The position numbers and the translations under genes are program-made. A stretch of DNA of 64,000 bases from Candidatus Woesebacteria bacterium (GTDB lineage Bacteria > Patescibacteriota > Microgenomatia > UBA1400 > UBA1396): contig JAJOJK010000017.1 in the NCBI GenBank assembly GCA_021208605.1, positions 17,872 through 81,871 on the forward strand, written 5' to 3'. Shown here piece by piece: positions 8,197 to 56,821 of this stretch; the first letter of the stretch is position 1, and every line of letters begins with the position of its first letter. The notes under the pieces are model-generated. The model was not told the DNA's origin, searched no databases, and saw only the letters and a program-made list of their open reading frames with translations.

Positions 8197-8301
8197 ACTA
8201 GGTAATCATACAGATATGATGTAAAAAGTTCCAATTTTGTTCTACGCTCTCCGCTCTTGAGAATAGACTTTGTTACCTGGGAACTTTGCTATACTTTCCG
8301 T

Positions 8302-8970
8302 ATGCATTCCCCACTACTTATCGCTCATCGAGGTGATCGTAAATATTTTCCAGAAAATACTTTGGTGGGATTCCAATCCGCATTCAGTAAAGGGGCTGAT
8401 GGTGTAGAAATGGATATCCAACTCGTGAGTGGCGAAATCCTTCTTATCCATGACTATATGTTTGATCTCCAACAAGAATACACTTCTCTAGAGAGTGTTC
8501 TACAAGAACTCAGTCAAGTTGGGCGACTAGAAATAGAAATCAAAGCCTTTACACCAGATATTATCGATCCACTAAACACGCTTCTGAAAAAATATGCACC
8601 AAAAGATATTGAAATAACTACCAGTGAGTTGCCAATTGTTCCATACATCACAAAAGCCTTTCCTCAGTATTCTGTCGGTGTAAACTTTAATGAATGTCAT
8701 TATGAATCCTGGATGAGTGAAGAGCTTTACGTAAGAAAAGTAAGTGACTACCTCGATATTTTCAGTGCCCAAGTTGCTCATTTAAGCAACTTACCAGAAG
8801 AAAAAATCACTGAATCTTTAGTGCATTCTCTCCAAAGAAAAGGCTACATAACTCACTACCACATTGGCTTCCTGGAAATGGATACCCAAATGCAAACTTA
8901 CAAGTTGTTACAAGAAGTAGGAATTGATCAGTGTACTTTTGACGACACTGACTTACTGAGTGGTGTATAA
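8302..8970 (+). CDS. glycerophosphodiester phosphodiesterase (GDPD) family
   Basis: LIAHRGD...ENTL and GADGVEMDIQL. Start refined to MHSPLL, which sits 6 nt after a TGcTATACT extended -10 (leaderless type). Confidence 0.7.
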   Translation: MHSPLLIAHRGDRKYFPENTLVGFQSAFSKGADGVEMDIQLVSGEILLIHDYMFDLQQEYTSLESVLQELSQVGRLEIEIKAFTPDIIDPLNTLLKKYAPKDIEITTSELPIVPYITKAFPQYSVGVNFNECHYESWMSEELYVRKVSDYLDIFSAQVAHLSNLPEEKITESLVHSLQRKGYITHYHIGFLEMDTQMQTYKLLQEVGIDQCTFDDTDLLSGV

Positions 8971-9668: not shown

Positions 9669-10088
9669 TTACTTCGTTAAATCAATAAATTGCACACCTT
9701 CAAAAAAAAGCTTTACTGCAGCTGCATGACCAGGAAGAACTTCTTGTAAATGAGCTGGATCAAACCACTCCCAACCCTCACATTTTCCTGGTTCACAAAG
9801 TGTCACTTCTTGATCATGAACCTCTGCTTGAAAAACAAAATGTACGAAATCATATGCATCTTGGTTTTCACGAACGATACCTAGAAATGTGAAATCTAGG
9901 CCTGTTAGTCCGGTTTCCTCCATTACCTCACGAGAGATAGCATTAGTCACTTTTTCATTCAACTCAATTCTTCCACCTGGCAAACCGTAGAAACCTGCTT
10001 TATAGCTATTCTTTCTCTTTCCAAGCAGAATTTCATTCTTTGAATTGGTAAGTACAGCACAAGTGCCAATTGGTTGATGTTTGCTCAT
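9669..10088 (-). CDS. NUDIX hydrolase (1 of 3 in the window)
   Basis: Nudix box GLPGGRIELNEKVTNAISREVMEETGL. Start refined to MSKHQ, placed 6 nt after TATAAT (leaderless). Confidence 0.75.
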   Translation of the reverse strand: MSKHQPIGTCAVLTNSKNEILLGKRKNSYKAGFYGLPGGRIELNEKVTNAISREVMEETGLTGLDFTFLGIVRENQDAYDFVHFVFQAEVHDQEVTLCEPGKCEGWEWFDPAHLQEVLPGHAAAVKLFFEGVQFIDLTK

Positions 10089-10203
10089 ACAAGTATTATA
10101 TCGGTCAAAAAAGTTCCAATTTCGCACCACTATTTCCGCCATCCCCAGTTAACACTTACACCGCGTATGAAGAACGCATTTTTTCTCAAGGAAATGATGC
10201 TAC

Positions 10204-11163
10204 TCAATCTGCTGCATCGGGAAGTGACGTCATTGTTTTCCTACTGAGTATGTTAAAGAAATCCTGCCGAAACTGTGAGTCATCGATCTGGACCACGACA
10301 TCAGCATTCGTTTTTCCTACTTTATGTGGTCGTTTTTCAGCAACGCTCATGCCAAAAGTGTGTTCGCCTTGGGTTTCAATTACGAGATCCATTGCTTTTA
10401 AGGTAAAAGCATGTGGATTCAGTAAGTAGTATGCAGCGAGAGCATCGTATACGAGAATTCCGGTGGTACCTTCATCTGAAGTTAAACCGCCAAAAAAATG
10501 TTCCATCATGGGAATCAAGATTGATTGGAGTCTCTCATTCTGTACTTTTCGGAAATCATCGACCTGAAGAATGACTGTATTACACACGTCAAGTGGAACC
10601 AGGACTTTCTGAACTTCGGCCTGAAAAACGTCATCAGCTGCCTCGGGATCAACAAAAAAGTTGAACTCAGCAACGCGGTTTTTATTCCCAGGAACATCTA
10701 TCGCACCGCCCATGATTACCAGTTGTTTCACTTTGCTTGAAAATTGTGAATCGAGTTGTATTGCCCGAGCAACATTACTCAGTGGTCCAAGTGCTAAAAT
10801 TGTTATTTCCTCTGGATTGGCAGTAACCAACTCAACCATTTTCTCAGGTGCATTTTGGGTAAGTCTGCAATCAGTACTCGAGGTATCAAATCCCGCCATC
10901 CCAGATTCACCGTGTACTACTGCGGTAACAAGTTTTCGTTTCAATGGTTCGTCAAAACCAGAAAAGATTGGAACCGGAGAACCAATCAAATCAAGAATTG
11001 CCTGTGCGTTTCTTGTTACCTTTTCAATCGTGGCATTACCAGCAACGGTGGTGATAGCCAGTACCTCAAATTGATCTGACAGGAGTGTCATCAAAATGGC
11101 TAGGGCGTCATCGTGTCCTGGATCGGTGTCGATGATAAGTTTTGGTTTGTTGTTTATTTGCAT
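10204..11163 (-). CDS. inosine-uridine-preferring nucleoside hydrolase family
   Basis: N-terminal DTDPGHDDALAI aspartate cluster. About 320 aa. Confidence 0.8.
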   Translation of the reverse strand: MQINNKPKLIIDTDPGHDDALAILMTLLSDQFEVLAITTVAGNATIEKVTRNAQAILDLIGSPVPIFSGFDEPLKRKLVTAVVHGESGMAGFDTSSTDCRLTQNAPEKMVELVTANPEEITILALGPLSNVARAIQLDSQFSSKVKQLVIMGGAIDVPGNKNRVAEFNFFVDPEAADDVFQAEVQKVLVPLDVCNTVILQVDDFRKVQNERLQSILIPMMEHFFGGLTSDEGTTGILVYDALAAYYLLNPHAFTLKAMDLVIETQGEHTFGMSVAEKRPHKVGKTNADVVVQIDDSQFRQDFFNILSRKTMTSLPDAAD

Positions 11164-12290
11164 AGTTTCTCCATGAGCGTTGAGAAAAACTCAACTGTTC
11201 GTTGATAATTTTTGATTGGAATTCGTTCTACGTTGCTGTGCCCGGTTTTTCCAAGCCCGCCTCCGAACATTAGTGCTGAGGGCTGATCGTATTGTTGCCA
11301 CATCATTTGTAAATCTAGGTAGCCCGTGTCTTGAGGATCTGACCAAGCCGTTTTATTCGTAGTGGGAACTATCTTTTCTATATCAGTTTTGGGTGTTATC
11401 CAAGCAGAGTAGTCATGTGTGATTTGCATGACTTCGAATTCAATCCTGTTCTTTGATGCAATATCACTCAGTTGCTTTTGTATAAACTGTGCCGTTACTT
11501 TCGGATTAGCCGGCCTGATATCAATCACACATTCACAAATATCTGGAATGATATTTCCGGCTTGGCCAACTTCTGTCAAAAATTCTCTTTGTAACGAGTC
11601 AGCCTTTTTCTGGCCACCAAAAATATAAGCTAAGTTTAAGCTCGTTTTTCCTAACTCAACGCTAGTTTGAGCATCTAAGATTTCCTTGAGAATAGCAACT
11701 AATCTGAATGTAGCATCAATTGCATTTCTTCCGTTCCCTTTGGCAGCGTGTCCAGACTTCCCAAAGACGCGAAGGCGTAACTCAATTAATCCGCGACAAG
11801 CATAGCCAACTTGGAGATCTGATCCATCTGCAGAAATGATTCTTTGTGGTTTTAGATCAGGGTACTCTTTTAAGAAACCCTTCATTCCCAGAAAGTCATA
11901 TTCCTCGTCGGCATACAGAACGATCCAAAAGTTATTAGCCTGAGGATTGTTTCGAGCTGCTAACAGCAAAGCAGCTAAACCAGATTTCATATCTGAGGCA
12001 CCGCGTCCCCAGATTTCACCGCCTTTCTCAATTGCTTGGCGCTGACTGGAGTCACTCGGTGCTACAGTATCCGTGTGTGCAAGAAAGAGAGTATCTGGAT
12101 TGCCTTTTTTGATGATGAGATTATATCGATCATTCCCAAGTGGTTGTTTTTCAATAGTTGCTGTCAACGTGTTTGCTACCCATTCTTCAATGTAATTCAC
12201 TAATTTTGTTTCATTTATACCCTGCTGATCATCAACATAGGAGGGTATTTCTATGAGTTGCTTGAGGAGTTCTATGGCTTCGTTGTTCAT
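11154..12290 (-). CDS. M20 family metallopeptidase (ArgE/DapE-like), paralog 1
   Basis: HTDTV, GRGASDMKSG, ADEEYDF. Overlaps its neighbours, so it is in an operon. Confidence 0.8.
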   Translation of the reverse strand: MNNEAIELLKQLIEIPSYVDDQQGINETKLVNYIEEWVANTLTATIEKQPLGNDRYNLIIKKGNPDTLFLAHTDTVAPSDSSQRQAIEKGGEIWGRGASDMKSGLAALLLAARNNPQANNFWIVLYADEEYDFLGMKGFLKEYPDLKPQRIISADGSDLQVGYACRGLIELRLRVFGKSGHAAKGNGRNAIDATFRLVAILKEILDAQTSVELGKTSLNLAYIFGGQKKADSLQREFLTEVGQAGNIIPDICECVIDIRPANPKVTAQFIQKQLSDIASKNRIEFEVMQITHDYSAWITPKTDIEKIVPTTNKTAWSDPQDTGYLDLQMMWQQYDQPSALMFGGGLGKTGHSNVERIPIKNYQRTVEFFSTLMEKLCK

Positions 12291-12958
12291 ACCATACCTT
12301 TCTTTTTTAATACATTGAGAGCACTGACAATATCAGGAGCAATAAAGTCCGCTTGAGTTTGCGCGTGTTTGGCAATTCGCAGAGTTTTCATCCCAATTTC
12401 TTTTGCCGGGAGGATGTCGGATTGCTCCTGGTCACCTATGGCTAAAATGGCTTTTGGTTCCAGGTTCCAATACTGTGCTAATTGGAGAAAAGCTGCAGGA
12501 TTGGGTTTACGGAGGTCAGATTCTCCAGTAAAGATTGCCTCGCCAAACAGGGATCGAATTTGAAGGAAATCCAATACTTTTTCGGTCCAAACTTGAGGAG
12601 CAGCGGTCAGTAGGCCGGCGCGTACGGATAACCCGGAGAGCAGCTGTGCTAAGGAATCGTTGTACTGCAGAAACCGTTCTGCGGGAACATTCCAAGTAGC
12701 AGCAAAGTATTCGTTTCGTGAGACGCCGAGCTCTTTTTCACAGGCAAGACTGATGTGCCCAGCATATTGCTTTTGAAGCTCCAGATACTTTTTTTCTGCA
12801 TCGTTTGCGGAAAGTGCACATTGTTTTTGTAAAAATGACAAAATATTAGCTCGAATGCACTGGCCAAACTGAGAAGATGCAAATGCACTCTCTTCGTTGT
12901 CATCAAATGCATAGAGAGTGCCATCCATGTCAAAAATGATGGCTTGGATTGTAGACAT
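12287..12958 (-). CDS. HAD superfamily hydrolase (phosphatase)
   Basis: FDMDGTLY (DxDGT) motif. Start MSTIQAI has SD GGAGG. The listed longer ORF reads through the leader and terminator. Confidence 0.75.
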   Translation of the reverse strand: MSTIQAIIFDMDGTLYAFDDNEESAFASSQFGQCIRANILSFLQKQCALSANDAEKKYLELQKQYAGHISLACEKELGVSRNEYFAATWNVPAERFLQYNDSLAQLLSGLSVRAGLLTAAPQVWTEKVLDFLQIRSLFGEAIFTGESDLRKPNPAAFLQLAQYWNLEPKAILAIGDQEQSDILPAKEIGMKTLRIAKHAQTQADFIAPDIVSALNVLKKKGMV

Positions 12959-12987
12959 ATGTATTCCTCCGTATTTCCTTTCTCCAT

Positions 12988-13010
12988 AAAAAAACCTCCC
13001 TTGCGGGAGG
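12988..13010 (-). terminator. intrinsic terminator/attenuator hairpin immediately upstream of the HAD gene RBS
   Basis: Minus-strand CCTCCC-GCAA-GGGAGG followed by T7, and then GGAGAAAGGAAAUACGGAGG...AUG of the HAD gene. Confidence 0.7.
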
Positions 13011-13038
13011 TTGCTCTTGTAGTTTCTTTTCTTGCTTT

Positions 13039-13110
13039 TTACGGCATCACCAACAAACACCTCCCAGGGCGGTTAAACCAGAAATGATGGTGCATGTTGT
13101 TGGTTTGCAT
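13039..13110 (-). CDS. putative leaderless leader peptide uORF, 23 aa: MQTNNMHHHFWFNRPGRCLLVMP
   Basis: AUG 7 nt after TATACT. Stop UAA at 13041..13039. A paralogous uORF sits in copy 2. Translation is unproven. Confidence 0.3.
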   Translation of the reverse strand: MQTNNMHHHFWFNRPGRCLLVMP

Positions 13111-13157
13111 TGAAGGGAGTATATCATAGTATTTTTTTGGCTTATACTCTAAGGAGT

Positions 13158-14397: not shown

Positions 14398-14598
14398 CTA
14401 CGGTTGACTCTTAATTCTCCGAATAGTGTGCCGATTGATCCAGGATTCATCTACGTAGAGATCAAGGCCATCCTCAGTTTCAAGCCGGACTAACAGTGTA
14501 TTGCGATCAGCAAGAGTTCCAAAGCCTGTTTTGTATGGTGTTGTGAGTGGTAGGGCAACTTCCAACAAATCTGTTCTGACTATTTTTGAATTACGCAT
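14398..14598 (-). pseudogene. truncated N-terminal remnant of an enolase-superfamily (MR/MLE, dipeptide epimerase-like) gene
   Basis: MRNSKIVRTDLLEVALPLTTPYKTGFGTLADRNTLLVRLETEDGLDLYVDESW matches the MR/MLE N-terminal domain pattern but stops after about 67 aa. The ATG overlaps the M20 stop (ATGCGTAA). Confidence 0.5.
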
Positions 14599-15703
14599 AC
14601 ATTTCTTCCTCCACATCCCGCAAAAACCTCCGCAGTCCCTCATAAAACGCCATCGTCGATTCTACATCCAGCCACTCGCTTTCCATATGAATATCTCCAC
14701 CGTGGGGTTTAATCATGAGAATTGGTATGTCAAATGCCGCAAAGTGTCTGGCATCCGAACCGCCATGGGTGGGTTTGATTTGTATCTTTTGCTGGTGCGT
14801 TGTTTCCAGTACTGCCAGGAATTTTTTAACGATCGGGAGTTCCGGATCGGTGGCAGTTGGAAGACCAGTTGCCAGCGGTGAGAAAGTGACCCGATTTTGG
14901 AAAGGTTCACACATTTCTGTGAGTTCATCCACTATGCGCTCGAAGCTGTCGGTTTCTGGATAGCGGAAATCAATCTGCAGGGTAGCACTGTCACAGACTT
15001 GGTTTGTGGAAATGCCGCCAGAAATTTTTCCAAAGTTCACGGTAGTTACCCAGCCTTCGGTGGCGTTATTGGCAGCGTAGCGTTTTTCTAACTTAGTTAT
15101 AATATGAGCCAGTGGAGTGATGGCATTTTCCCCATCCCAGAGTCTGGAAGCATGCGCTGATGTTCCAGTTGACTCAACCACAAATTGCGCCACACCCTTG
15201 GAGGCATGAACAAACTGAAGATTGTCACCACCATCAGGCACAATCAGTACTTTTGGTCGCCATTGTGCGGTTTCTGCCAGGTGCGCCGCGCCGTCAAGGC
15301 CGCCGATTTCTTCGTCAGTAGTAACAACGAATGAGAATTGAAGCGGGCTCTTGTTTTCGATCAATTCGTTCAGGAGGGCAATGCCGAGTGGAATTGAAAA
15401 CTTCATGTCGCTCACCCCACGGCCAAAGATCTTGTTTTCTTGCTGAGTCATGGTGAACATTTTTTCAGATGCCGCTACGACATCAACGTGCACGAGATAT
15501 CCGATATCTGGTTGCAGTGTGTCTGAATTACTGGCAATGAGTATTTTTGCTTTAGCATTTTCAATGACTCGTACGTTTGCTTGCGGCGAGAGCAGCGTGC
15601 GAATATATTCGATTGCCTGTTGATTCGCAGTCGTGTCAGCGGTGACTGTGGGGATAGCTACCAAGTCTGATAGCTGATGCAAAAATGTATCTTTGTGTAA
15701 CAT
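14591..15703 (-). CDS. M20 family metallopeptidase, paralog 2
   Basis: HVDVV, GRGVSDMK, TTDEE. Start MLHKD with SD GGAGAAAGGA. Confidence 0.8.
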   Translation of the reverse strand: MLHKDTFLHQLSDLVAIPTVTADTTANQQAIEYIRTLLSPQANVRVIENAKAKILIASNSDTLQPDIGYLVHVDVVAASEKMFTMTQQENKIFGRGVSDMKFSIPLGIALLNELIENKSPLQFSFVVTTDEEIGGLDGAAHLAETAQWRPKVLIVPDGGDNLQFVHASKGVAQFVVESTGTSAHASRLWDGENAITPLAHIITKLEKRYAANNATEGWVTTVNFGKISGGISTNQVCDSATLQIDFRYPETDSFERIVDELTEMCEPFQNRVTFSPLATGLPTATDPELPIVKKFLAVLETTHQQKIQIKPTHGGSDARHFAAFDIPILMIKPHGGDIHMESEWLDVESTMAFYEGLRRFLRDVEEEMYA

Positions 15704-15716
15704 ATTTCCTTTCTCC

Positions 15717-15744
15717 AAAAAAAAACCTCCCAGGTGGGAGGTGG
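15717..15744 (-). terminator. intrinsic terminator/attenuator hairpin immediately upstream of the M20-2 RBS
   Basis: Minus-strand CCACCUCCC-ACCU-GGGAGGUGG followed by T9, then GGAGAAAGGAAAUAUG. Confidence 0.7.
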
Positions 15745-15771
15745 ATTCTTGTTTCTTTTTGTTCTATTGCA

Positions 15772-15837
15772 CTACAAACAAGCACCTCCGCGGGTGGTCA
15801 TAAACCAAATAAGGGCGTAGCAGTTGTTTGTATGCAT
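15772..15837 (-). CDS. putative leaderless leader peptide uORF, 21 aa: MHTNNCYALIWFMTTRGGACL
   Basis: Same -10/N7/AUG geometry as copy 1. The peptides share M-x-T-N-N, WF and C-L positions. Confidence 0.3.
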   Translation of the reverse strand: MHTNNCYALIWFMTTRGGACL

Positions 15838-15920
15838 TGTGGGGAGTATAGCACAGTAGTTACGCGTTCAAAATGAAAACATATCCGGATTTGTAAGCGT
15901 TATTGTATAATACACAACTT

Positions 15921-21656: not shown

Positions 21657-21679
21657 GATTTTTCGTCTATACTGCGTGC

Positions 21680-51957: not shown

Positions 51958-52196
51958 GGTCCGCGCGGTGCTTGGAGCAGCGGCGGGATTTGGTTCGAGG
52001 TACTCTGTTTCTACATTTGTTATGCGAGCGCGCTGAAATGAGGTATCAGTAGGCAGAGCTTCAGATGGAAGTGCTGGTTCTTGCGCCGAGACGCTCGTCG
52101 CGAAAAAAAAACGAAAAAAGGAAAATCAGAAGTCCGGGAAGAATGGTAGAGAGAAGCTGCTTGTGGTAGGTCATGAACAGATCTATACTAACATGC

Positions 52197-53213
52197 ATGG
52201 TCTCCTTTTTTCGACGTTTGAAACTCTGGCAATGGATTCTGATCATCGGTTTAGTGACGGTGATTGGTGGTGGGATAGCTTGGCGGCAGTTTGGCCAAAA
52301 AGAGGAAGTTGTCGAAACCATCACACCACGCTATCAGCCGTTGCAGCAGACGTTGGAGTTCACCGGTTTGGTAAATGCGCATGATCGGGTGCAACTTCGT
52401 TTTGCTACCGGCGGCGAGGTCATCTACATTGGAGCTCAGGAAGGTGACACGGTGAAACGAGGGCAGACCATAGTGAGTCTGGATCGACGTTCAATGGAGA
52501 AGTCGCTCGAAAAATCGCTCAGTTTATATGAAACCCAGCGCCGCACGTTTGAGGGCACAGAAGATACCCTCGGTGATTATATCGATGACGACGATGAAAA
52601 ACGCGAAGCCGAAAAGAATCAGTTTGCGCTCGAGCGCTCAGTATTAGATGTAGAAATTCAATCTCTCGCTATAGAAAACTCCCGTTTAAGTTCCCCATTG
52701 AACGGTGTTTTAGTGACATCTCCCGTCACTGTAACCGGAGTGAATATTTTTGCGACTGATATCTTTGAAATTGTTGATCCCGATACTCTCTATTTCCAAT
52801 TACTGGTGGATGAAGTCGATGTCGACAAGATGTATGTTGGTCAAAAAGCCTACGTGCGTTTGGATGCTCGCCCCGATGATGTCCTAGAAGCCATCGTGGC
52901 GGATATTTCTTTGAAGGCGGCACAAGGTGCGAGTGGAACGGTTTTTCCTGTCGAACTTGATTTTATTGCGCCAGTTTCGATTCAAGAGCAACGGCTTGGC
53001 ATGAACGGTGAAGCCGCCGTGGTCTTAGCGGAAAAAGATAACGTCTTGACGGTCCCGATTGAAACCGTCACATTCCGTGATGGCGAGAGTTGGGTTGAAG
53101 TTCTTGTGGACAGCGAAGTACAACGACGAGTGGTAGTCACTGGTGTCGAAGGTGATGATTCCGTGGAGATAGTGAGTGGTTTGTCGGAAAACGATCAAGT
53201 AGTTTTGCCATGA
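52197..53213 (+). CDS. efflux periplasmic adaptor (HlyD/MacA family)
   Basis: TM anchor, coiled-coil hairpin and a beta-barrel region. Start refined to MVSFF, 7 nt after TATACT (leaderless). The in-frame ATG at 52173 would include the -10. Confidence 0.7.
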   Translation: MVSFFRRLKLWQWILIIGLVTVIGGGIAWRQFGQKEEVVETITPRYQPLQQTLEFTGLVNAHDRVQLRFATGGEVIYIGAQEGDTVKRGQTIVSLDRRSMEKSLEKSLSLYETQRRTFEGTEDTLGDYIDDDDEKREAEKNQFALERSVLDVEIQSLAIENSRLSSPLNGVLVTSPVTVTGVNIFATDIFEIVDPDTLYFQLLVDEVDVDKMYVGQKAYVRLDARPDDVLEAIVADISLKAAQGASGTVFPVELDFIAPVSIQEQRLGMNGEAAVVLAEKDNVLTVPIETVTFRDGESWVEVLVDSEVQRRVVVTGVEGDDSVEIVSGLSENDQVVLP

Positions 53214-55694: not shown

Positions 55695-55720
55695 GCGCGG
55701 CGCCTGATATACTAACGCAC

Positions 55721-56821
55721 ATGATACTTCCCAAAGACATTCGTGAGCAGTGGCAAGAAGCCGAGCAAAAAGCGAATGAACTCCGTGAGTCTGTCGACAC
55801 TGTGGCCAAAGAGGCGGAAATTGCCCGTTTGCAAAATTTGACGCTCGATCCCGCGTTCTGGAATGATCAAGTGAAAGCGAAAAAAATAAACCAAGATTTA
55901 TCTAGCCTGCAGCAAGAACTCGAACGCATCCAGGAGCAGGCACAACTACTGGAAGATATTGCAGCGTATATTGATTTAGTTTCAGAAGAGGAAGACGATG
56001 TGCCGGTTTCTGACCTTTATGCACTTTTGTCTCGCTTGCGTGCCGTCAACCAGACTATTGAATTGCAAACGTATTTGGCTGGTCCTTATGATAAGAATGA
56101 TGCTCTAGTAACGATTCACGCCGGCCAAGGTGGCACGGAAGCCATGGACTGGGCCAGTATGCTCCGCCGCATGTACGAGCGTTACTTCCAACGGCAAGAG
56201 TGGAAGTTCGAAACGCTCGAAGAAAGTCGCGGCGAAGAAGCCGGTATTAAATCAGTTACTTTTTTAGTGCACGGTGCGTATGCATATGGGTACCTCAAAG
56301 GGGAATCCGGAGCGCATCGTTTGGTTCGCCAGAGTCCATTTAATGCCGATGGATTGCGCCAGACCTCTTTTGCGGGCGTTGAAGTAATGCCCTTTTTAGA
56401 TGATGAAGATACCTCCATTGAAATTAGCCCAGATGACTTGGAATGGCAGTTCGCGCGTGCTGGCGGAAAAGGCGGTCAAAATGTCAATAAAGTGAATACC
56501 GCTGTCTATCTAACGCACACCCCAACGGGAATTACCGTGCATGCTCGTCAAGAACGCAGTCAAGAGCAGAATCGAAAAATTGCTTTGCAGATGCTCCGTT
56601 CACAGCTGGCTGAACAGGAAGAACAGAAACGTCGCCAAGAGATTTCTGATATTAAAGGGGAGTACCAACAGGCCTCCTGGGGAAATCAGATTCGCAACTA
56701 TGTTTTGCATCCGTACCACTTGGTAAAAGATACGCGCACCGAGGTGGAGACCAACGATACGACGGCCGTTTTGGATGGTGATCTCGACACATTTATCTTT
56801 GCTGAGGTCTCCCAACTCTAG
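55721..56821 (+). CDS. prfB: peptide chain release factor 2, single uninterrupted ORF
   Basis: SPF tripeptide (RF2-specific) and GGQ. No internal in-frame UGA and no split frame. Confidence 0.85.

Follow-up and report, generated by a model that had tools for sequence, protein, structure and literature searches.

In a 64,000-nucleotide window of a Candidatus Woesebacteria contig (JAJOJK010000017.1, positions 17,872 to 81,871 of the forward strand), the stretch from 9669 to 12958 carries genes for a HAD-superfamily phosphatase, an M20 metallo-deacylase (M20a) and an IU-type nucleoside hydrolase (IUNH), followed by a NUDIX hydrolase gene. We propose, with a probability of roughly two in three, that the HAD-M20a-IUNH operon is governed by a his-type leader-peptide (ribosome-mediated) transcription attenuator that responds to histidine starvation. 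Leaders of unrelated sequence in front of the orthologous operons all carry runs of His codons, and leaders of this kind also precede histidine genes, which argues that the signal is histidine, perceived via the supply of His-tRNA through ribosome stalling. A previous interpretation of this DNA, the sequence-only reading, had held that the sensed signal could not be predicted from context; the HHH run in the leader and the His runs of its counterparts contradict this.

The same reading had suggested control by an attenuator, and a short open reading frame (ORF), an antiterminator and a terminator were indeed all found upstream of the HAD gene. The components of this leader (leader 1) are as follows:

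13126..12986, minus strand: leader 1, upstream of HAD and just beyond the stretch 9669-12958
13118..13126, minus strand: extended -10 promoter element TGATATACT, 7 nt before the leader ATG
13039..13110, minus strand: leader ORF MQTNNMHHHFWFNRPGRCLLVMP, 23 codons and a stop codon
13084..13092, minus strand: His codons CAC CAT CAT (codons 7-9), with Asn codons AAC AAC (13101..13096) before them
13044..13108, minus strand: 5' hairpin 1:2, with region 1 at 13108..13089 and region 2 at 13065..13044
13065..13059, minus strand: antiterminator core GGGAGGT, inside the leader ORF and within region 2
12988..13012, minus strand: intrinsic terminator AACCTCCCGCAAGGGAGGTT and then a T run (AACCTCCC-GCAA-GGGAGGTT), with an 8-bp GC-rich stem

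No Shine-Dalgarno sequence precedes the leader ORF, whose Asn codons sit within the 5' helix. The 5' arm of the terminator finds its complement in the antiterminator core, and an A-rich spacer lies between the leader ORF and the terminator. The latter folds alone at -14 kcal/mol, has a run of 7 T, the first two of which are in the stem, and is situated 30 nt upstream of the HAD start codon. No gene ends at this position on either strand, because the neighbouring GrpB gene is divergent, as is the GT2 gene; the hairpin is therefore not a 3' terminator of any gene. This observation also bears on the possibility that no regulation takes place, the hairpin being a constitutive partial or bidirectional terminator and the HHH-encoding ORF a product of chance. 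A weaker terminator-like site on the plus strand (13001..13022) speaks for such an arrangement. However, besides the lack of any gene end, a duplicate of the leader unit stands upstream of another M20 gene, His runs occur in 14 of 69 comparable units in relatives, and antiterminators co-vary with terminators between lineages, so that we consider an unregulated site extremely improbable.

Structure prediction showed that leader 1 and its paralog in the window (leader 2, described below) both fold as a long 5' hairpin (nt 3-67 in leader 1) followed by the terminator, in minimum free energy (MFE) as well as centroid structures. The RNAalifold consensus of seven members of the leader family gives the same fold, and a compensatory C-G to A-U change distinguishes leader 1 from leader 2 (alignment columns 27/84). 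The effect of a ribosome was then modelled thermodynamically by masking a 28-nt footprint codon by codon. With the A site on any of codons 2-10 of leader 1, including the NN and HHH codons, the predicted MFE fold is an extended antiterminator that pairs nt 37-62 with nt 95-118. From codon 11 (W11) onward the terminator is predicted to be back, except at codon 23 and the stop codon in one of two maskings.

These predictions are consistent with the following mechanism. Transcription would start about 7 nt past TGATATACT, so that the mRNA would have its 5' end on the leader AUG or adjacent to it. In a ribosome-free leader, the long 5' hairpin would lock GGGAGGU, the terminator would form and transcription would stop before HAD. 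When charged tRNA-His is scarce, a ribosome would stall at codons 7-9, perhaps also at the two Asn codons, and melt the 5' half of the hairpin. The freed GGGAGGU and its flanks could then pair with both terminator arms, allowing RNA polymerase to enter the operon. Since such a switch would read His-tRNA through stalling, in-line probing of the leader RNA with candidate ligands would be the wrong experiment.

Alternatively, the leader could act as a riboswitch or be recognised by an RNA-binding protein of the PyrR or TRAP kind, its 5' hairpin binding the metabolite or protein while the mini-ORF is incidental. The hairpin is conserved in eight family members together with an apical GGU...ACC stem, and the whole-leader z-score is -2.95, both of which would suit this explanation; the hairpin without the terminator is nevertheless not unusually stable (z -1.17). 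At the gathering thresholds of Rfam 15, only four tRNAs pass in the whole window, with no cis-regulatory family, known riboswitch or T-box, and a search of both leaders at E-values up to 10 returned no relevant family. The best sub-threshold scores were those of Phe_leader (21.3 and 26.3 bits against 55) and His_leader (RF00514, 18.2 bits against 49, E = 1). Furthermore, neither RNA sequence nor RNA shape is common to the orthologous operons of other lineages, which have in common only the combination of a His-run ORF, an antiterminator and a terminator, and the ORF persists through synonymous changes and codon-sized indels. A ligand-binding or protein-binding leader thus appears improbable.

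We also considered arrest by the nascent peptide, as in TnaC, where the conserved W-F and a stall at W11...P23-stop would report a free ligand. WF is present in 7 of the 8 family members, and the WFN of leader 1 and its spacing of 12 from W to the terminal P are presumably the same as those of E. coli TnaC (W12...P24). The terminal Pro and this spacing are, however, absent from leader 2 and from the rest of the family, where the final residue is L, A, M or Q and lies 9-13 residues past W, and since these TnaC features are not conserved in paralogs or relatives, the likeness is probably a coincidence. In addition, UGGUUU also makes the apical stem, mask folding is ambiguous for a ribosome on the stop codon, and TnaC works on Rho-dependent termination. 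Arrest by the peptide itself is accordingly a highly improbable explanation.

To compare these leaders with those of relatives, loci with M20a homologs were collected from contigs and metagenomes and scanned for mini-ORFs, covering 374 kb of related loci. A contig scan with the full M20 alignment was swamped by the generic motif and gave three useful loci; a subfamily-specific segment worked on metagenomes. The scan revealed 69 mini-ORFs followed by a terminator, of which 14 contain a His run (for example NNHHHH, SHHHHIH and MHHHF), and no other residue forms runs in more than 3. The leaders of orthologous operons have nucleotide sequences unrelated to that of leader 1, each with its own matching antiterminator/terminator pair, and this also holds for the closest ortholog of the M20a operon. 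The His-run leaders and the genes behind them (loci are numbered with the letter L) are:

L120, the closest ortholog operon: leader peptide MLYCITLRHQVHHVLHTVGVVIHFS, followed by M20a-IUNH-HAD
L001 and L099: leader peptide ..QNNHHHHAIS.., followed by a histidine racemase homolog ... HAD-IUNH-M20a
L090: leader peptide MTNLISHHHHIHLSFGGR, followed by a phosphoribosyltransferase (PRT)-like protein and then M20a
L109: leader peptide MKFTFAMHHHFRFGRG
L101: leader peptide MFANVVHHHHFRLRRG
L112: leader peptide ..SNHHHINLFR
L116: His-run leader
L003:5569-5970: two tandem His-run leaders, each with its own terminator, followed by an M20a-like gene and then hisS (histidyl-tRNA synthetase)
L113:8217-9510, minus strand: His leader ..SFHHHS with a terminator arm from the stop codon, followed by hisG-hisE (PF01634, 2.8e-53; PF01503, 3.8e-24)

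The complementarity between antiterminator and terminator co-varies between lineages, as illustrated by the pairs in L120 (TCGGGGTTGTG with CACAACCCCGA), L099 (CAGCGGGGTG with CACCCCGCTG) and L001 (CAGCGAGGTG with CATCTCGCTG); L001 and L099 differ by an A-to-G change in the antiterminator, paired with a T-to-C change in the terminator arm. The L001 and L099 operons begin with the histidine racemase homolog, which matches PDB entry 9cr6 (1.4e-19) and scores 94 bits with the CntK model, whose cut-off is 300. In ribosome-mask folding, the predicted permissive window falls on the His codons in L101b, L109 and L116, and in L099, L090a, L112, L120a and L123b the His run would lie at the 3' edge of that window.

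Three of these leaders (L001:915-990, L099:205-280 and L120:7270-7345, minus strand) have an outer second hairpin, for example AAACACTTCA...TGAAGTGTTT, that encloses the terminator and ends before the ribosome-binding site (RBS) of the first gene; it is absent from both leaders of the window. Around hisG-hisE of L113, the surrounding 10 kb hold no other his biosynthetic genes, and genes for a SLOG/LOG-like protein, an AstE/AspA-like deacylase, a PfkB-type kinase, an EamA transporter, hutH and M20a lie nearby.

The composition of the leader peptides raises the question of whether His is sensed alone. The attenuator could instead sense several amino acids, with Asn and aromatic codons (N4, N5, F10 and others) acting alongside His as a general signal of scarce amino acids. 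Asn is five-fold enriched in the three codons before His runs (12/44 against a background of about 5%, p 2.5e-6), the predicted permissive window of leader 1 spans codons 2-10, and leader 2 retains N-N-C-Y-L-I via synonymous changes. Related leaders are also rich in Y, W, F and H, as in L122 (MHYHFWF) and in L002 (SYWHFSLHS), which stands before HAD-IUNH-M20'. On the other hand, only His forms runs across unrelated leaders, hisG, hisS and the histidine racemase homolog lie behind such leaders, and a stall at W11 or F12 is predicted to keep the terminator. We therefore regard a multi-amino-acid sensor as unlikely, and the Asn codons before the His run as either a co-signal or structural AAY codons. 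Leaders with Asn before the His run were seen in L001, L003, L099, L112, L116, L087 and the window itself (13096-13101). The L002 operon (leader at 9791-9937, minus strand) encodes a third M20 type, and its aromatic- and His-rich leader MLIRSYWHFSLHSAVAGGFSDKL is likewise accompanied by an antiterminator and a terminator. A queuosine signal was also considered, since Q34 tRNAs decode the His, Asn and Tyr codons and queuosine hydrolase belongs to the IUNH family; it was rejected because hisG, hisS and histidine racemase homolog genes lie behind such leaders and because Asp codons are not enriched.

A second geometry of His leaders was observed at L117:2543-2610, L087:2650-2745, L090:1992-2070 and L101:604-680. 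Here, the mini-ORF either overlaps the terminator or ends 0-10 nt away from it, with no predicted antiterminator. In mask folding, L117, L090 and L101 are predicted to lose the terminator only at the end of the ORF, and L087 would form it at every position. Leaders of this type precede hutH, encoding the catabolic histidine ammonia-lyase, and EamA-type transporters. Such a geometry would fit induction by histidine sufficiency through pyrBI-like coupling, a polarity opposite to that of leader 1.

Leader 2 lies upstream of a paralogous M20 gene (M20b) and is 80% identical to leader 1. The features of this second unit are:

15716..15853, minus strand: leader 2, a paralogous attenuator with TGCTATACT-N7-ATG
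15837..15772, minus strand: leader 2 ORF MHTNNCYALIWFMTTRGGACL, ending in a stop codon
15789..15783, minus strand: leader 2 antiterminator GGAGGTG
15742..15725, minus strand: leader 2 terminator, then T9
14591..15703, minus strand: M20b, a second ArgE/DapE-type M20 deacylase of 370 amino acids
14398..14598, minus strand: enolase-superfamily gene remnant, a 66-residue ORF

The permissive codons of leader 2 are predicted by mask folding to be N N C Y A L I. Compared with its ortholog in L120, leader 2 shows three synonymous changes and two whole-codon indels, which argues that the leader ORF is read as codons. A covariance model of the leader family recovered eight members. Every relative of the family retains the ORF, and the peptides share the pattern M-Q/H-T-N...W-F...G-R/G-C-L. 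At positions 7-10, leader 1 has three His codons, L123b and L122 have two, L123a and L124 have one, and leader 2 and L120b have none; the sole His of L121 is at position 13. Leader 1 looks like a copy of the family scaffold that was re-coded with HHH. One family member (L123:527-683, 59.8 bits, MQITTMHHSTWYTTPSGRCVFVLQ, TACAAT-N7-ATG) lies upstream of a 97-residue ORF and an ABC-2 type transporter operon.

M20b shares 28% identity with M20a, and its own relatives reach 75%. The sequence-only reading had placed the paralogous M20 gene beside a dipeptide-epimerase remnant. The remnant is real and consists of about 43 N-terminal residues fused to about 25 C-terminal ones, with about 300 residues deleted, but its parent is an N-succinylamino-acid racemase (NSAR). 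In L120 and L124, M20b overlaps an intact NSAR-type enolase-superfamily gene whose best structural matches are N-acyl/N-succinyl-amino-acid racemases (1sja, 4.6e-81), compared with 1e-22 to 1e-27 for dipeptide epimerases, which were rejected as the parent. M20b is thus a candidate N-succinyl-L-amino-acid desuccinylase whose racemase partner has been lost here.

The window contains 4 copies of the motif TATAMT-N7-ATG against an expectation of 0.6, and 3 copies of its N6 form against 0.56. The matches at 8302, 10088, 52197 and 55721 are true gene starts (a match at 21668 was left out), and as these other matches are ordinary gene starts, leaderless initiation appears to be normal, and leaderless mRNAs common, in this genome. 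TATACT-N6/7-ATG was observed at the starts of a GDPD gene (8290-8304, NCBI start 8302), a membrane protein gene and a release-factor-like gene (52184-52199 and 55708-55723). The leaderless-type start proposed earlier for NUDIX holds as well: TATAAT-N6-ATG is present at 10100..10086, and the NCBI gene call in the same genome uses that ATG (139 amino acids). Within the leader family, TGn-TAnAnT-N7-ATG is retained in 8 of 8 members, and the leader ORFs are probably translated from leaderless or near-leaderless mRNA.

Several points weigh against a histidine-starvation attenuator. Leader 1 has only three His codons, whereas E. coli hisL has seven, and leader 2 uses the same scaffold with no His run. 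The regulated genes are hydrolases and not his biosynthetic genes. A ribosome on the last or the stop codon leads to near-isoenergetic folds, one masking giving the terminator and another the antiterminator. No antiterminator covariation above that of shuffles was seen in the close leader family, where the helix is invariant and the test therefore says nothing. In L087, where the M20a-IUNH-HAD genes stand behind the catabolic hutH, no antiterminator is predicted for the His leader; regulation thus varies between lineages. Finally, CPR (Candidate Phyla Radiation) bacteria are uncultured, and the transcription start, the stalling of the ribosome and the direction of regulation in vivo are all inferred.

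Turning to the genes of the operon, the identities proposed earlier were matched by Pfam for all four genes, each on the minus strand:

12287..12958, minus strand: HAD-superfamily phosphatase, 223 amino acids, Pfam PF00702 (6e-16) / PF13419
12970..12966, minus strand: RBS GGAGG of the HAD gene
11154..12290, minus strand: M20a, ArgE/DapE-type M20 metallo-deacylase, 378 amino acids, PF01546 and PF07687 (dimerisation domain)
10204..11163, minus strand: IUNH, 319 amino acids, PF01156 (3.7e-85, full length)
9669..10088, minus strand: NUDIX hydrolase, 139 amino acids, Pfam 1.4e-19

The catalytic motifs are legible as DMDGT, the N-terminal DxDxxxDD motif of IUNH in the form DTDPGHDD, and the Nudix box. 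Start-to-stop coupling of the ATGA type, claimed for the operon as a whole, is found between HAD and M20a (12290..12287) but not between M20a and IUNH, which share a 10-nt overlap (ATGCAAATAA, 11163..11154). The best NCBIfam models of the HAD protein, CTE7 and pyrimidine 5'-nucleotidase, are each far under their cut-offs. Profile comparison of the M20 subfamily, which the sequence-only reading had advised, placed M20a and M20b in the NCBIfam ArgE/DapE deacylase subfamily (for M20a TIGR01910, 101.8 bits, cut-off 217.6), at family level only: the NCBIfam equivalog models are all far under cut-off for both M20 paralogs. The metal ligands H72, D100, E129/E130 and H351 of M20a are invariant among 34 homologs, and its closest homologs outside the source strain, at about 50% identity, are all from Patescibacteria. 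IUNH is RihC-like, with 251 bits below that model's cut-off of 382.

The NUDIX gene begins 115 nt past IUNH with no terminator in between. It had been counted as part of a salvage set, a grouping that relatives do not share: NUDIX is loosely attached to the operon and lies outside the conserved module, being found among other genes in relatives. A second assembly of the same strain (L083, GCA_021208155.1) differs only in homopolymer lengths, which break M20b, HAD and a methyltransferase gene; these differences are probably long-read assembly errors and not biology. The leaders in other assemblies of the strain are identical save for homopolymer errors and are uninformative.

Conserved neighbours provide a further view of what the operon may do. 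The M20a-IUNH-HAD triad is present in 12 of 31 loci, with varying gene order, and the neighbours of M20a, with the number of the 31 loci that have them, are:

250-residue Zn-ribbon protein: 18
HAD: 12
IUNH: 12
hutH: 12
HisRS-like: 6
EamA transporters: 5
histidine racemase homolog: 4
PRT-like protein of 350 residues: 4

The hutH gene of L087 passes the TIGR01225 cut-off, and GNAT-type genes as well as the histidine racemase homolog lie beside M20a in relatives. The 250-residue Zn-ribbon protein is possibly an acyltransferase, judging from a Q-x-x-G-x-G motif, with no GNAT match. The PRT-like family, of about 350 residues and with no Pfam domain, stands first behind His attenuators in four loci:

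L109:5227-6291: PRT-like gene
L090:6532-7608: PRT-like gene
L101:3741-4856: PRT-like gene
L112:8873-9916, minus strand: PRT-like gene

Its members carry a motif resembling a phosphoribosyl pyrophosphate-binding site, LLVVDDVLAFGDT, and have weak phosphoribosyltransferase matches (E 0.04-0.16); searches of Pfam, NCBIfam and the PDB with the PRT-like and Zn-ribbon proteins gave weak or no matches. In the 64-kb window itself there is no hisS, hutH, hisG, histidine racemase, PRT-like or EamA gene. The NAD/ADP-ribose salvage considered previously finds no support; the conserved partners are hutH, the histidine racemase homolog, hisS, hisG and EamA.

We tentatively suggest that M20a may free L-histidine from an N-acyl-His or Xaa-His conjugate, with HAD and IUNH taking nucleotides to base and ribose. 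A hydrolase that releases histidine would fit both starvation-induced and hutH-linked operons. The link of HAD and IUNH to M20a is conserved, and AICAR disposal or PRPP supply were also considered as possible roles for these two enzymes.

The closest known counterpart of leader 1 is the his leader of E. coli and Salmonella (hisL, RF00514). Both have a short ORF with consecutive His codons and mutually exclusive protector, antiterminator and terminator hairpins; stalling at the His codons is predicted to give read-through, and the same design precedes hisG in relatives. Apart from its smaller number of His codons and its low RF00514 score, leader 1 differs from hisL in that its ORF is apparently leaderless, that its pairing is three-strand (1:2, 2:3, 3:4) and more trp-leader-like than the six-segment his leader, and that it regulates hydrolases in a probable histidine auxotroph.

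Mycobacterial polycysteine attenuators offer another comparison; these are leaderless short ORFs whose downstream operon responds to the supply of the amino acid of the run (10.1101/834739). They share with leader 1 a very short first ORF, a run of a single residue and, as it appears, a leaderless mRNA, but belong to another phylum and use Cys instead of His, and the Patescibacteria units have a canonical intrinsic terminator and an antiterminator. Among the papers searched, none was found that describes such an attenuator for Patescibacteria or CPR.

On the enzyme side, the overlap of M20b with an NSAR-subfamily gene in L120 and L124 resembles the Geobacillus N-succinylamino-acid racemase pathway. 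In the window, by contrast, the NSAR gene is the 66-residue remnant and no GNAT gene is adjacent, and M20a is tied to a nucleoside hydrolase and a HAD phosphatase, neither of which is part of the Geobacillus pathway.

CPR bacteria, or Patescibacteria, are regarded as very poor in regulators and as reliant on hosts for their amino acids. The leaders described here suggest that classical translation-coupled attenuation, apparently on leaderless mRNAs, lets them monitor the charging of their own tRNA-His. A his-type attenuator would explain the leader, and no ligand-binding RNA or novel riboswitch would be needed. The genes behind His leaders form a candidate list for histidine supply or disposal, namely hisG, hisS, the histidine racemase homolog, M20, IUNH, HAD and the PRT-like gene, together with hutH and EamA transporters behind the variant leader without an antiterminator. 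This gives a functional handle on the M20, nucleoside hydrolase and HAD triad, which is annotated to family level only.

More speculatively, and with considerable doubt, the His-attenuator regulon may mark an undescribed route of histidine acquisition in auxotrophic, host-dependent Patescibacteria. M20a, IUNH and HAD, variably joined by the histidine racemase homolog, PRT-like and Zn-ribbon proteins, an M15 dipeptidase and EamA, would dismantle a ribosylated, phosphorylated or N-acylated His conjugate, or D-His peptides, to L-histidine, and the leader scaffold would have been copied and re-coded so that leaders 1 and 2 differ in amino-acid specificity. The operon and its leader may offer a starting point for studying how CPR bacteria obtain histidine.

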